Notes: a model not told the origin generated them from the sequence alone. DNA of 64,000 nucleotides from Candidatus Sulfomarinibacteraceae bacterium (GCA_963785275.1 CAWAUY010000015.1:43228-107227); one strand, 5' to 3'; shown: positions 46,696-59,215, counted from the stretch's first letter. Made by a program: numbers and translations.

Positions 46696-46720
46696 CCGAC
46701 GCGTATTTCTTAATTTTGAA
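46682..46720 (+). terminator. Rho-independent terminator overlapping the pspC stop
   Basis: Stem ACGCGTCGGC / GCCGACGCGT. The loop CTA contains part of the TAG stop. Followed by ATTTCTTAATTTT. Confidence 0.65.
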
Positions 46721-46812
46721 TTCTCAATTTTGAATTACGGCACCTGATTTTTGTCGGGCGCGGATGCTGCGTGGGTTCAATTCAAAATTCAAAATTCAAA
46801 ATTCAAAATTTT
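46711..46812. repeat. Heptamer-armed hairpin element H1 (unit AAAATTC/GAATTTT)
   Basis: The left arm is AATTTTG AATTCTC AATTTTG AATT (46711-46737). The core is an unrelated 40 nt. The right arm is (AATTCAA)x4 (46778-46812), the reverse complement of the left. Confidence 0.85.
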
Positions 46813-46917
46813 CTGACGAACCTTTTCGCCATTCCTCCGTTGTGATGACTAGACACGGCTGCTAACTCTTTCGCCACGCGGTCGTCATAGAGACGGACAC
46901 AACAACGGAGGTGGGAT

Positions 46918-47460
46918 ATGAAACGAAGTCTGATCGCCCTGGTCGCCATCATCACTCTGATGGCAGCGCCCGCAGCGTCCGCCGATGAGTCGACCCGGTG
47001 GGTCAACGTCACGGTCACCGAGAACTCGAGCAACACCAACGTCGAGGTGCACCTGCCTCTCAACCTGGTGCTGACGGTTCTCCGCAACGTCGACGTTGAG
47101 AATTTCCACAAGGGACACGTCGATTTCGAGCTCGACGACGACATGGACATCAATTTCTCCGAGATCATGGCCGCGGTGAAGGATGCGCCGGACGGCAAGT
47201 TCGTGACCGTGACCTCGGATGAAGCTGACGTCAACGTCCACAAAAAGGCCGGCATGCTCTACGTCACCGTCAACCAGAAGGAAGACGAGATGGCCAAAGT
47301 CGAGGTCACCGTTCCGATGGAGATGATGGACGCCCTCACCTTCGGCGAAGAGAACACCCTCGACGTCGCAGCCCTCCTGGGCAGCTTTGACCAACTGCCC
47401 AACGGTGAGCTGGTCAGGGTCACATCCAACGAGGCCAACGTTCGCGTCTGGATCGAATAA
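46918..47460 (+). CDS. Secreted hypothetical protein, paralogue 1
   Basis: Signal MKRSLIALVAIITLMAAPAASA. Internal repeat KFVTVTSDEADVNVHKK / ELVRVTSNEANVRVWIE. Confidence 0.55.
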   Translation: MKRSLIALVAIITLMAAPAASADESTRWVNVTVTENSSNTNVEVHLPLNLVLTVLRNVDVENFHKGHVDFELDDDMDINFSEIMAAVKDAPDGKFVTVTSDEADVNVHKKAGMLYVTVNQKEDEMAKVEVTVPMEMMDALTFGEENTLDVAALLGSFDQLPNGELVRVTSNEANVRVWIE

Positions 47461-48032
47461 TGAAGTCTCAACGCGGTATGTCGACCCTGGGGTCGGTACT
47501 GCTCGCCGGCACTGTCGGTCTGCTGACTGCGACCCTGCTCATGGATTGGATGGTGGTCGATGTCCACGTGGTGGATGTCTCCCCCAGCGACGACCTCGAG
47601 CTTGACTCGCCGGTCCACATCAAGGTGCCCTTCCCCCTCGTAGTGGCGAGCATCGCCTCGAGTTTCGTCCCGGACGAGGCCCTCGATGAGGCCGAGATTC
47701 CGCCCGAGGTGAGGGCTCAGAAAGACCTTGTGCTCGCCTCGGTCCGCGCACTTTTGGATAGCCCTGACGCGGCACTGGTCACTGTGAAGACCGAGGACGC
47801 GGATGTCGAAATCGTCAAGGACGGCGACACGCTTCGCATCGCAGTCGACGCAGAAGACGCGGTCGTGCGCTGCAACATTCCAATCGACGGAGTTCTCGAG
47901 GCCCTCGAGAACTGGGACTGGCAGACCGTCGACCCGCAGATGATCTTCGACGTCCTGCACGCCGCGGAAAACGGAGAACTGGTGACCGTCGCCACCGAGG
48001 ATGGTGTGAGGGTCTCCGTCAAAATGTGGTAA
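47460..48032 (+). CDS. Membrane-anchored hypothetical protein, paralogue 2
   Basis: The start overlaps the upstream stop (TAATG). It has a TM anchor and the same module: ALVTVKTEDADVEIVKD / ELVTVATEDGVRVSVKMW. Confidence 0.55.
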   Translation: MKSQRGMSTLGSVLLAGTVGLLTATLLMDWMVVDVHVVDVSPSDDLELDSPVHIKVPFPLVVASIASSFVPDEALDEAEIPPEVRAQKDLVLASVRALLDSPDAALVTVKTEDADVEIVKDGDTLRIAVDAEDAVVRCNIPIDGVLEALENWDWQTVDPQMIFDVLHAAENGELVTVATEDGVRVSVKMW

Positions 48033-48292
48033 GAAAATTTCGGATTTCGAATTTCGAATTTCGGATTTATCCCCGCCTACCCGGCGGGGTTTTTCATTCA
48101 ACACGACTTGAATAATTTTGACGGCAGCCGGGACGGCCGCCCCACAAGGCACCCGTGAACTGTTTTGTGGGGCAGCCGTCCCGGCTGCCAGGAGATGCTC
48201 TATCTGGGTCAATCTGGATGATCTGTGGACAGGTCTGGGCGGGTGGGCGGCAATTCCGAATTCCGAATTCCGAAATCCGAAATCCGAAATTC
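48033..48292. repeat. Nested composite element H2
   Basis: Left heptamer array TTTCGGA/TTTCGAA at 48033-48069. Terminator-like CCCCGCC-TACCC-GGCGGGG-TTTTT at 48071-48094. Inverted pair of GGCAGCCGGGACGGC(C/T)GCCCCACAA units at 48123-48189. Right heptamer array CCGAATT/CCGAAAT at 48251-48292. Confidence 0.85.
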
Positions 48293-57850: not shown

Positions 57851-57869
57851 AAACCTCTCCCTGATCATC

Positions 57870-57976
57870 GTGAGTTATGAGTTCTCAGTTTTGAGTTTTG
57901 AGTTCGCCATCGCCCCTCCCTGAATTCTGGGCGTGAGGCCGAGAACTCAAAACTAAGAACTCAAAACTCAAAACTC
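57870..57976. repeat. Heptamer-armed hairpin element H5 (unit AAAACTC/GAGTTTT)
   Basis: Left arm GAGTTATGAGTTCTCAGTTTTGAGTTTTGAGTTC, then a 35-nt core, then right arm GAGAACTCAAAACTAAGAACTCAAAACTCAAAACTC. Confidence 0.85.
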
Positions 57977-58009
57977 GTCTCTGTTCTCCTCATTCACCAC
58001 CCGTCCCGT

Positions 58010-59002
58010 TTATCCCATCCGAAAGGCGACGCCTGCCTGGTTATACCCTACCCCGGACCCGACCATCACGAGGAGCTGACCCGACGAAATTTTGCCTTGC
58101 TCCAGTGCGTCGTCAAGCGCGATGGGCACACACGCCGAGCCCGTGTAGCCCCATTTCTCCATGACGGTGTGCGTGCGCTCCATCGGCAGACCGAGATCGG
58201 CCATCACCAGCTCGATCGACGGTTTGCGGACCTGGGTGAAGATCGTGAAGTCGATATCCGACAGCTCGAACCCGCCGTTCGCGGCCAGCTTGCGCACCAC
58301 CGCGGGCCACCCGTCGTGGTTGATCTCGGGTGGATAGCGCTCGATCATCTTGACGGTGGTTCGGCCCTCGCGGACCGCCTCCTCGGTCGCGGGTTCAGCG
58401 GTCGCGCCGGCGTAAATGCCCCAGTGCCCATGGTAGAAACCGTCAGCCCTGAAGGCAGACGACACAAATCCCGGATCAGTCGACGGCTCGAGGACCGCCG
58501 CACCCGCGCCGTCGCCGTAGAAGAACACCATCGGGTCGTCGGGCGAAGCCAATTTCTGCATGTTGTAGACGCCGACCACCAGCACCGTCTTCAACGACGG
58601 GTTGGCGGCGATCAGACCGGCCGCGGTCGATGCGCCGGTCGGAAAGGACGCACACGCGCATCCGACATCGAAGGTGCCGGCGTTTTTTGCGCCGAGCTTG
58701 TGTTGCAGGACCACCGAGGTGGCCGGGGTGATGTAGTCCGGTGAATCGGTGCCGAGGATGATCAGGTCCACGTCCTCGGGTTTCCGGCCGGCCTTTTCCA
58801 GGGCCTGTTGCGCCGCCGGCAGCGCGATGTCGGAGGTACACCACTCCTCCGGGGCCCACCACCGGGTCAGGATCCCCGTCGACTCCTCCATCTTGTCGAC
58901 AAAATCCGGCAGGTGCGCAAAGCGTTCGCGCAGGGTATCGTTCGAAACTTCGTTCTCGGGGATGTACCGCCCCGTTGAGACAATTGATGCGAACCTCGTC
59001 AT
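58010..59002 (-). CDS. KASIII (FabH)-like thiolase-fold protein retaining Cys but lacking the His and Asn of the catalytic triad
   Basis: GGGAGG RBS before ATG 59002. TFDVGCACASF aligns with FabH AFDVAAACAGF. DFTIFTQVRKP aligns with DWLVPHQANLR. KWGYTGSACVPIAL aligns with RHGNTSAASVPCAL. Confidence 0.8.
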   Translation of the reverse strand: MTRFASIVSTGRYIPENEVSNDTLRERFAHLPDFVDKMEESTGILTRWWAPEEWCTSDIALPAAQQALEKAGRKPEDVDLIILGTDSPDYITPATSVVLQHKLGAKNAGTFDVGCACASFPTGASTAAGLIAANPSLKTVLVVGVYNMQKLASPDDPMVFFYGDGAGAAVLEPSTDPGFVSSAFRADGFYHGHWGIYAGATAEPATEEAVREGRTTVKMIERYPPEINHDGWPAVVRKLAANGGFELSDIDFTIFTQVRKPSIELVMADLGLPMERTHTVMEKWGYTGSACVPIALDDALEQGKISSGQLLVMVGSGVGYNQAGVAFRMG

Positions 59003-59043
59003 CTGCACCTCCCTCGCTTACCGGTCAACTCCTTCGGCAGATT

Positions 59044-59215
59044 GGCAGCCGGGACGGCTGCCCCATCCGGCTTCGTCCTAGGGACTTCGCCGTGACAAGC
59101 AGTATCCCCTTGCTTGTGACGGCAGAGCGCCCCGTGCGGAGCCGCATGGGCCACGCATCTCACGTGCCGTCTGGTTGGGCGGCATTCCGAATTCCGAATT
59201 CCGAATTCCGAATTC
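59044..59215. repeat. Composite intercistronic repeat
   Basis: GGCAGCCGGGACGGCTGCC hairpin at 59044-59062. Hairpin GCCGTGACAAGCA...TGCTTGTGACGGC at 59089-59123. (CCGAATT)x4 array at 59184-59215, abutting the SDR stop. Confidence 0.8.

Follow-up and report, generated by a model that had tools for sequence, protein, structure and literature searches.

Intergenic palindromes with tandem heptamer arms as a candidate dispersed repeat family in Candidatus Sulfomarinibacteraceae

The 64,000-nucleotide stretch of DNA analyzed here (the window) comes from a Candidatus Sulfomarinibacteraceae bacterium (GCA_963785275.1, CAWAUY010000015.1:43228-107227) and carries between its genes a set of hairpin-forming elements whose arms are tandem AT-rich heptamers. 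We give about even odds (roughly 0.5) to the reading that these elements form a lineage-wide family of DNA palindromes dispersed between genes, with microsatellite stems, similar to repetitive extragenic palindromic (REP) sequences, acting mainly at the DNA level, and of the same kind as the inverted heptamer pairs of Xanthomonas. Each half of an element consists of 3-6 AT-rich heptamers, followed in ~44% of cases by a (CCCR)2-3 box, and two inverted halves enclose a variable loop. The elements fill junctions that were once tight (0-22 nt in distant relatives), and they extend from the stop codon, which they sometimes supply, to ~10 nt before the ribosome-binding site (RBS). Unit number and unit variant change fast, the two arms are matched by unit type, and the pairing is strand-symmetric.

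A self-match scan of the window, whose G+C content is ~63% throughout, returned 14 arrays of period 7. Thirteen of these are AT-rich, with 2.3-5.3 units each. Periods of 5, 6, 8, 9, and 10 gave 0-7 arrays apiece, which are GC-rich and chance-like except for octamer sets that lie in the same spacers as the heptamers (GGGGAAAG, CGCAGAG, and CCCTTTCT). The initial annotation of this DNA, made from sequence alone, had described five inverted elements and several single arrays. All of them are present, and the arms of the five elements (E1, 46707-46810; E2, 48036-48291; E3, 53829-53949; E4, 55177-55356; E5, 57868-57976) are 85-91% complementary across 30-34 nt. When compared with 200 dinucleotide shuffles per element, all five fold better than the controls on both strands, with RNAfold z-scores from -3.6 to -11.2. 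The proposal that the design is real, nonrandom, intergenic, and hairpin-forming is supported. The survey was extended to the window plus 81 related loci (designated L001 and onward), a total of 622 kb, in which we counted 143 AT-rich heptamer arrays. Neighboring arrays no more than 300 nt apart make up 42 pairs, of which 26 are inverted (≥80%), 3 are direct, and 13 are neither. Among 123 distinct orthologous junction spacers, 76 fold with z below -3. The arrays are not assembly artifacts, a possibility that the annotation had raised, because dozens of independent assemblies carry the same arrays at orthologous sites, in some cases identical ones, for example those of L022 and L023 or of L013 and L041. 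No Rfam family matches the elements at its gathering score; the only matches in the window are two Acido-Lenti-1 RNAs, both of which lie elsewhere.

The annotation had also held that the architecture is conserved and the sequence is not, and that the cores share no similarity. Neither statement survives the larger sample. Fifteen recurrent units, each dominating at least two arrays, cover 131 of the 143 arrays and fall into one connected network of single-nucleotide substitutions. They include AATTAGG, AAAACTC, AATTCCG, AAATCCG, and AAAATTC, and none contains a G3 tract. At least five unit types coexist within one genome. A classical MITE (miniature inverted-repeat transposable element) with fixed terminal repeats therefore does not fit, which upholds the earlier judgment that a single transposing MITE is unlikely. 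The cores have in common a (CCCR)2-3 box with the consensus CCCaCCCnccC. When scored within 18 nt downstream of an array, or upstream in complementary form (in paired elements, the inner side), the box adjoins 63 of the 143 arrays (44%); the opposite configuration is seen for 7, and the background is ~2% per counting window. The layout of an element is thus (heptamer)n-(CCCR)2-3-loop-(YGGG)2-3-(heptamer')n, and the presence of the box beside the arrays argues for a dispersed family with a conserved module. Between cores at nonorthologous sites the excess of similarity is weak and is accounted for by the box, and we rejected paralogy of whole elements between junctions given that the similarity is confined to the level of the box. 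The loops also host other repeats, namely a GGCAGCCGGGACGGCYGCCCCACAA hairpin, a GTCAYCCTGAGCGAGCGAAGCGAGTCGAAGG palindrome, and GGAGGTGCCTGGCATCCCGATTCGCCGCGAATCGGCGTGCCTGGCATCC. Hairpins of the form GGCAGCCGGGACGGCYGCCCCACAA...TTGTGGGGCAGCCGTCCCGGCTGCC make up a second dispersed family, GC-rich and often situated in the loops of heptamer elements, with window copies at 48123-48189, 52080-52108, 32789-32835, and ~59030-59060 and further copies in L002, L014, L015, L020, L027, and L047.

The array loci of the window are all intergenic, and six of the eight are same-strand operon junctions. These six intercistronic gaps belong to two operons. At 27.4-29.6 kb, arrays occupy both gaps of a cusC/cusB/cusA-type RND efflux operon, and at 52-60 kb they lie in a minus-strand operon that reads, in the order of transcription, SDR, KASIII-like protein, alpha/beta hydrolase, AMP-dependent acyl-CoA ligase, SCP-x-type thiolase, and two further hydrolases. 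E1 lies downstream of a same-strand gene, and E2 lies between convergent genes. The fit to the gaps is close. Of 72 distinct strong hairpins, 19 have a 5' arm that starts in the true stop codon or no more than 3 nt past it and 57 have one that starts within 20 nt, and the 3' arm ends a median of ~21 nt ahead of the start codon, which leaves space for the RBS. In the window, the arms of E3-E5 stop just upstream of the RBS and the thiolase stop codon lies inside E3, consistent with the placement first described, at or in the upstream stop and ending before the RBS. Several units (TGAGTTT, TGAATTT, and TAGGAAT) contain a stop codon, which a 7-nt period presents in all three reading frames. The window thiolase provides an example. 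At its 3' end (53940-53975, minus strand) the usual stop, which follows ...VLRRA or ...RRAEN in relatives, has been lost by small indels; the reading frame runs into the array and ends as ...LEASRETEF at an array-encoded TGA, so that the array serves as a three-frame back-up stop. The hydrolase downstream of E3 has an in-frame TGA at codon 5 (53804-53806, minus strand; MAKS-stop-QPDRSG...), a position occupied by Leu or Ile (CTG, CTA, ATT, or ATC) in the 8 orthologues checked. This gene may be a pseudogene, may reinitiate at a GTG at 53722, or may contain a sequencing error.

A scan anchored on the thiolase protein recovered 80 metagenome loci with 70-97% amino acid identity, all of which keep the six-gene order. 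In the most distant loci (L064, L067, L069, L072, and L078) the junctions measure 0-22 nt or overlap, and the same is true of the KASIII-to-hydrolase junction in several loci at 80-83% identity. Junctions in the close clade measure 60-300 nt and are occupied by hairpins with tandem-repeat arms. Relatives at 75-80% identity show the same architecture with GC-rich hexamer arms, in the pairs CCCGTT.../...AACGGG, CCGCGT/ACGCGG, GACCTG/CAGGTC, and CTCCCT/AGGGAG. At the ligase-to-thiolase junction of several close-clade loci, the hexamer right arm on the RBS side has been kept and the left side now consists of (AGGAATT)n and a C-rich box. These mixed hexamer/heptamer spacers are layered chimeras. 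Two further families of palindromic repeats share these junctions in some strains: GTCAYCCTGAGCGAGCGAAGCGAGTCGAAGG... and GGAGGTGCCTGGCATCCCGATTCGCCGCGAATCGGCGTGCCTGGCATCC are found in the thiolase-to-hydrolase and ligase-to-thiolase gaps of L005, L009, L021, and L039, and in the ligase-to-thiolase gap of many loci.

A case of unit turnover comes from L001, in which both flanks of E2 are 95.6% identical to those of the window and the alignment breaks exactly at the spacer. L001 retains the core hairpins of E2, and its arms are (AGGAATT)n and (AATTCCT)n versus (ATTTCGR)n and (CCGAAWT)n in the window; CCGAAAT/CCGAATT has become CCTAATT in both arms, the turnover with preserved pairing that the initial annotation had anticipated. 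Alleles of the KASIII-to-hydrolase junction are collinear, with GAGTTTT/AAAACTC in the window, L005, and L050 and GAATTTT/AAAATTC in L047 and L002. The difference is G:C versus A:T at one unit position, in all units and in both arms. Alignment of a left arm with its own right arm scores about twofold higher than alignment with the right arms of orthologues at other loci (35.5 vs 18.9, 39.8 vs 28.4, and 37.4 vs 17.5). Unit class agrees between the arms in 26 of the 31 classifiable thiolase-to-hydrolase elements, where units were typed by motif class, the exact dominant 7-mer being too strict. Fitch parsimony on a neighbor-joining tree of the thiolase requires 22 changes for each arm taken separately and only 26 for the two jointly. 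Whole spacer alleles probably move by recombination, so that independent events are likely to number closer to five or six, as many as there are matched classes, than to 22. One recombinant, L024, has mismatched arms, with GAGTTTT on the left and AATTCCT on the right. Unit number varies even among near-identical strains, for example between L010 and L016 or between the window and L047. We also considered a mirrored order of irregular units, as would be left by inverted duplication of a whole arm or by long-tract conversion from arm to arm. Permutation of the units within an arm gave equal complementarity in 26 of 28 cases, and the mirroring seen in E5 is anecdotal. Because the order of variant units is not mirrored, the matching works at the level of unit type and not through copying of whole arms.

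The complementarity is the same for both strands. Stem mismatches, read on the mRNA-sense strand, include 51 G.U and 48 A.C (p = 0.84), and transversions are the commonest class (154). The raw minimum free energy (MFE) favors the sense strand in 82 spacers versus 41. However, measured against shuffles of the same strand, the excess folding energy is -13.7 kcal/mol for the sense and -14.5 kcal/mol for the antisense strand, with z-scores of -3.85 and -3.83. This control removes the sense advantage, and the raw bias is thus an effect of composition; the sense strand of the spacers is slightly G+T-rich. The balanced G.U and A.C counts and the equal own-shuffle z-scores give no support to selection on the sense RNA, and strand-symmetric complementarity points to a DNA palindrome rather than a structure selected in one transcript. 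The initial annotation had suggested that the design is selected or regenerated locally; the strand tests do not favor selection on an mRNA hairpin. Intrinsic termination was rejected as a function. A scan for terminators found no terminator-like site at E3-E5 on the sense strand, and the 5' arm is the pyrimidine-rich one in 61 hairpins versus 10, with the C-box ahead of the G-box. A T/C-rich arm before the stem and an A/G-rich arm after it do not provide terminator geometry on either strand. Separate terminator-like hairpins are present at 46682-46704 and 48071-48089.

If the elements are DNA palindromes of this kind, replication slippage would homogenize each array, and the formation of a hairpin in single-stranded nucleic acid, on either strand, would keep the arms complementary. 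Mismatched arms would be fixed by short-patch intrastrand template switching (quasipalindrome correction) or purged by selection. Tandem arms can pair in any register, so slippage would never break the stem. Within operons the elements would be co-transcribed without terminating the transcript, their folding would rejoin the stop codon with the next RBS, and the ~30-bp AU-rich duplex could protect the message or be processed. Persistence as tolerated repeat DNA probably comes first, and any benefit for expression second. Several points weigh against this reading. About 60% of the arrays lack a complementary partner and yet persist, which means that pairing is not needed for their upkeep. The spread of whole elements by copy-and-paste lacks support from core similarity, as nonorthologous cores share little beyond the box. 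The covariation of arms across strains may in part be linkage, with whole alleles recombining. At the thiolase-to-hydrolase junction some hairpin, of four or five differing kinds, is kept in nearly all of the ~45 loci above 75% identity, and this hints at selection there, which a view of purely tolerated junk does not predict. The slippage and template-switching steps are inferred. Moreover, clear or consistent target-site duplications were not found at the junctions, and the ~35 window open reading frames (ORFs) scanned against Pfam include no transposase or other mobilizing enzyme.

Three other explanations compete with the DNA-palindrome reading. One takes the elements to be functional intercistronic mRNA hairpins under selection in the sense transcript. 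They would be sites for RNase III or other processing, or 3'-end stabilizers, that set the relative expression of the cistrons, or they would hold stop codon and RBS adjacent and so preserve translational coupling over 100-200 nt, with tandem arms that tolerate slippage. REP hairpins of E. coli are a textbook case of stabilization of upstream mRNA. The strong folding of the elements would suit such a role, as would the way in which, in two operons, they begin exactly at the stop codon and end shortly ahead of the RBS, an arm polarity that avoids terminator geometry, and the retention of some hairpin at one junction in ~45 diverged loci despite replacement of its type; the Xanthomonas arrays, too, are transcribed (PMC4692102). 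We nevertheless regard this explanation as unlikely. The G.U and A.C counts show no sense-strand signature, the MFE advantage of the sense strand vanishes against own-strand shuffles, and identical elements occur after terminal genes and between convergent genes (E1 and E2). In addition, single arrays and chimeric, nonpairing arms persist, and there is no match to an Rfam family.

A second explanation, which we consider distinctly unlikely, is that of nonautonomous mobile elements of MITE or REPIN (REP doublet forming hairpin) type, in which a trans-acting transposase, such as a RAYT (REP-associated tyrosine transposase) or an IS200/IS605-type enzyme, would recognize the DNA hairpin formed by the (CCCR)n/(YGGG)n palindrome, whether arrays accompany it or not, and the alleles would be independent insertions or ectopic conversions rather than products of evolution in place. 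The termini, i.e., the arrays, are the least conserved part of the elements, which is the opposite of what is expected of terminal inverted repeats (TIRs) recognized by a transposase, and at least five unit types share a genome. The collinear KASIII-to-hydrolase alleles differ by concerted point changes, and cores at nonorthologous sites are only weakly similar. Short direct repeats that flank the KASIII-to-hydrolase elements (for example TGATCGGG in L005) speak for mobility but are absent or unclear at other junctions, and the absence of a consistent target-site duplication and of a transposase in the scanned ORFs counts here as well. The Xanthomonas arrays are likewise not associated with mobile elements (PMC4692102). 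On the other hand, mobility would account for a conserved box beside arrays at many unrelated sites and in many strains, for junctions that are empty in distant relatives and filled in the close clade, and for alleles at one junction that differ throughout save for the box. One half-element, GGAATTCCCACCC for example, can be found at two different junctions, the two GAGTTTT elements in L010 have irregular units in common and resemble each other in the core, and half-elements overwrite the older hexamer hairpin in L005, L008, L014, and L041. It is highly improbable that the arrays are primarily protein-binding or non-B-DNA sites, whether multivalent sites for one protein per 7 nt (cold-shock-like) or AT-rich nucleation points for nucleoid proteins, with a G-box that may form a G-quadruplex and with inversion as a secondary feature. 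The strict 7-nt period, the preference for 4-5 units in several phyla, and the persistence of single unpartnered arrays would be explained, and the (YGGG)2-3 boxes are rich in G-tracts. Binding of heptamer repeats by CspB has been reported, as cited in MacGregor 2015 (PMC4679880), and Xanthomonas units form G-quadruplexes in vitro (PMC4692102). However, the units are too variable for one sequence-specific binder, relatives have hexamer and octamer arrays in the same architecture, the arms are without G3 tracts, boxes with four G-tracts are rare, and the covariation of the arms is left unexplained.

The initial annotation took the inverted, unit-variable form to be undescribed. The kind of element is in fact known from Xanthomonas, where Rehm et al. 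2015 (PLoS One, PMC4692102) report ~185 GGGAATC arrays per genome and 70-75 convergent (inverted) pairs per genome. These arrays are 89-93% intergenic, mostly between same-strand ORFs, have a mode of 4 units, lie at or overlap stop codons, and are transcribed; their length and sequence vary between related species and the single or paired type is kept. The authors proposed G-quadruplexes and left the function open. The elements described here share with them tandem heptamers of ~4 units, an intergenic position adjacent to or overlapping stop codons, inverted stem-loop pairs, and a GC-rich host. What is new is that they are AT-rich, multi-unit, and box-associated and show unit turnover. In place of a single G-rich unit capable of forming a G-quadruplex there are at least 15 AT-rich units without G3 tracts, and only the adjoining box is G-rich. 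The covarying turnover of units in the two arms, the (CCCR)n/(YGGG)n inner box, the hexamer and octamer arrays of relatives, and the Acidobacteriota-like host go beyond the Xanthomonas description. Full-text literature searches turned up no description of such elements in Acidobacteria.

Other repeat classes fit in part. Like REPs, bacterial interspersed mosaic elements (BIMEs), and REPINs, which reach hundreds of copies in the case of REPs, the elements are short extragenic palindromes, often in inverted pairs, that lie at 3' ends and in intercistronic gaps, would be co-transcribed, carry a short conserved motif, and can be nested or mosaic. The candidate for a conserved unit of REP type is the box, which adjoins 44% of arrays in strict orientation, and the remaining stem and the loop are unconserved. 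REPs, in contrast, have units of 20-40 nt with fixed sequence, a GTAG/CGTC head, and a cognate RAYT, whereas the stem here is mostly variable microsatellite. No Y1 transposase was found among the ~35 window ORFs in the Pfam scan, and the head motif (GTAG/CGTC) was not searched for. Correia elements of Neisseria are palindromic inserts of 100-160 nt that are co-transcribed with neighboring genes and form long RNase III-cleavable hairpins; their 26-bp TIRs are conserved, a TA target is duplicated, and their cores are homologous. The present elements are likewise palindromic inserts in operons, but show no clear target duplication; the outer arrays differ between the copies in the window, and the interiors are not homologous. 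Mycobacterial interspersed repetitive units (MIRUs) measure 46-100 bp and are direct, not palindromic, and partly translated. They resemble our elements as tandem repeats in intercistronic gaps, where MIRUs overlap the flanking stop and start codons, and differ from them in that here the units are heptamers and the arrangement is palindromic. Integron attC sites or cassettes were rejected, as the arms on direct reading contain no R''/R' cores (RYYYAAC/GTTRRRY) and the flanking genes are a syntenic operon at 70-97% identity. The heptamer excess itself, the polymerase-slippage idea of Mrazek, and the binding of heptamers by CspB are reviewed in MacGregor 2015 (PMC4679880). The cyanobacterial short tandemly repeated repetitive (STRR) sequences and the TAACTGA repeats of Beggiatoaceae, as treated there, are also intergenic tandem heptamers (2-6 units) with a lineage-specific unit near gene ends, for which slippage with a 7-nt footprint was proposed (MacGregor 2015, PMC4679880; Mrazek 2007 as cited there). 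In contrast to the elements here, with 26 inverted and 3 direct pairs, those repeats have one dominant unit, lie upstream of start codons, and are nearly always direct (169 direct sets vs 1 indirect; PMC4679880). Their units (CCCCAGT, TTGGTCA, CAACAGT, and TAACTGA) differ from those found here.

To gauge the distribution of such arrays, 185,579 species genomes were scanned with (GAATTNN)x4, which gave at least 120 stretches from many phyla. Among the matches listed, many contigs have near-perfect inverted heptamer pairs, with several units per contig. Examples among these include Blastocatellia (L089, with GGACTGA and AGGGTCT), Pyrinomonadaceae, Thermoanaerobaculia, a sponge-associated gammaproteobacterium (L111), Clostridia, Bacteroidota, and cyanobacteria. 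A contig of Candidatus Sulfomarinibacteraceae (L174) carries the same heptamers, octamers, and the GGGTGGGCGG box. In L111, from a 67% GC sponge symbiont (Candidatus Poriferihabitaceae, Gammaproteobacteria), positions 3340-3640 hold inverted (GGAATTA)n/(TAATTCC)n arrays that are bracketed on the outside by CGCCGCAGGCGG palindromes; the unit is the same, and the arrangement is different, in another phylum.

The individual elements of the window vary in their details. E1, a palindrome to which no strand is assigned, has a 5' arm of TTTTGAA/TTCTCAA units (46707-46736), a core of 42 nt, and a 3' arm of (AATTCAA)4.6 (46779-46810), with 87% complementarity over 30 nt and z-scores of -3.6 and -4.9. 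It starts 12 nt past the stop codon (46693-46695) of a small plus-strand gene, a stop that sits within the terminator-like hairpin 46682-46704, and it ends 107 nt before the next plus-strand start (46918). E2, also without an assigned strand, fills the gap between convergent genes and is bounded by their stop codons (TAA 48030-48032, plus; TAG 48292-48294, minus). Its arms at 48036-48068 (ATTTCGG/ATTTCGA) and 48252-48291 (AATTCCG/AAATCCG) are 88% complementary over 33 nt (z -9.9 and -11.2), and its core contains the intrinsic-terminator-like hairpin 48071-48094, the nested REP-like hairpin 48123-48189, and a G-box, GGGCGGGTGGGCGGC, at 48237-48251. The remaining three elements are on the minus strand. 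E3 fills the thiolase-to-hydrolase gap (z -4.8 and -3.6) with arms at 53829-53868 and 53917-53949, in which GAGTTTT/AAAACTC shades into GAATTCT/TAATTTT; the array includes the thiolase stop codon (53940-53942) and the final three thiolase codons, and the RBS AGGAGGAT (53822-53829) follows directly. E4 fills the gap between acyl-CoA ligase and thiolase. Its arms, (ATTTCGG)4.5 at 55177-55208 and CGAAATT/CGAAATC at 55325-55356, are 91% complementary over 32 nt (z -6.8 and -4.4), an extra short array lies inside at 55256-55277, and the flanks are formed by the ligase stop (55359-55361), the thiolase RBS (55162-55167), and the thiolase GTG start (55155-55157). In the KASIII-to-hydrolase gap, E5 has arms of GAGTTTT/AAAACTC and variant units at 57868-57905 and 57942-57976 (85% over 34 nt; z -6.9 and -5.7) around a GC-rich core of 37 nt, with an RBS at 57855-57862 and a start codon at 57848-57850 downstream.

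Incomplete and composite arrangements are found as well. A half-element on the minus strand (59173-59215) directly follows the SDR stop (59219-59221) and consists, on the sense strand, of (GAATTCG)4.6 at 59184-59215 and then the box GCCGCCCAACC (59173-59183 on the plus strand). It has no complementary partner arm, and the rest of its spacer holds REP-like hairpins. The gap between the cusC-like and cusB-like genes (29453-29541, minus strand) contains (GAAATCC)4.7 heptamers at 29467-29499, the box GGTTGGATGGGTGGG at 29453-29467, and CCCTTTCT-like octamers at 29509-29541. The cusB-like to cusA-like gap (27458-27738, minus strand) is a composite spacer with (GGGGAAAG)4 octamers at 27458-27495 and heptamer arrays at 27604-27623 and 27705-27738. 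It includes a 102-nt module in two tandem copies (27512-27722), each combining a heptamer array with a CATCGCA...TGCGATG hairpin and (CGCAGAG)4 octamers. Complementarity is lacking between the arrays on either side of each hairpin, and a hairpin can thus be bordered by arrays that do not pair.

Several other features of the window were recorded. Upstream of a GGDEF gene, the gap at 51880-52005 holds octamers, (GCAGAGGA)3.2, at 51880-51906 and then a 30-nt inverted repeat (51919-51948/51976-52005) with 87% complementarity. The two Acido-Lenti-1 RNAs (RF01687) are full-length, lie at 13705-13750 and 63209-63254 on the minus strand, and score 55-56 bits against a gathering threshold of 37; the second is located at, or immediately upstream of, the 5' end of a TetR-family ORF (62406-63263). 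These RNAs are the chief taxonomic hint and, together with L174, point to an acidobacterium of marine sediment, probably Thermoanaerobaculia-like; tblastx of the window against the 120 genome loci was of no use for the placement. Tandem repeats unrelated to the heptamers occur at 32517-32647 (47 nt, 2.8 copies, 95%) and 32718-32772 (19 nt, 2.9 copies, 100%) in the intergenic region upstream of an Rce1-like ORF (CAAX protease family). Inside the cusB-like gene, a 117-nt tandem duplication (28929-29162; 2 copies, 76% matches) probably encodes repeated HMBD heavy-metal-binding domains, which Pfam reports three times. Finally, in two ORFs at 16387-19190 (minus strand) the match to the AcrB/RND transporter profile is limited to fragments (positions 687-770 and 77-255), which suggests a second RND gene that has been disrupted or frameshifted.

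An excess of heptamer microsatellites in many bacterial genomes has been known since 2007 without an accepted explanation. The analysis adds a dated before-and-after series that leads from tight junctions through hexamer-armed to AT-rich heptamer-armed hairpins, the matched replacement of units in both arms at less than 5% flank divergence, and a box that unites the arrays as a family. With these, the origin of the arrays and the level of selection, DNA or RNA, become testable with existing metagenomes and simple reporters. There is a practical side for the annotation of metagenome-assembled genomes of Acidobacteriota, since gene callers run ORFs through the arrays and the elements can supply stops or alter C-termini, as in the window thiolase. 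In a wider and tentative view, which we hold to be unlikely, microsatellite-armed palindromes would be a general class of bacterial repeat found across phyla (Acidobacteriota, Xanthomonas, cyanobacteria, Bacteroidota, and others) in which only the architecture is inherited: slippage would leave a perfect stem in a new register, variants would sweep through both arms via G.T intermediates, and the box would seed the growth of arrays. If this were true, the class would represent a natural and fast form of concerted compensatory evolution, and bacteria or the elements themselves could add 100-300 nt to tightly coupled operon junctions with expression intact.

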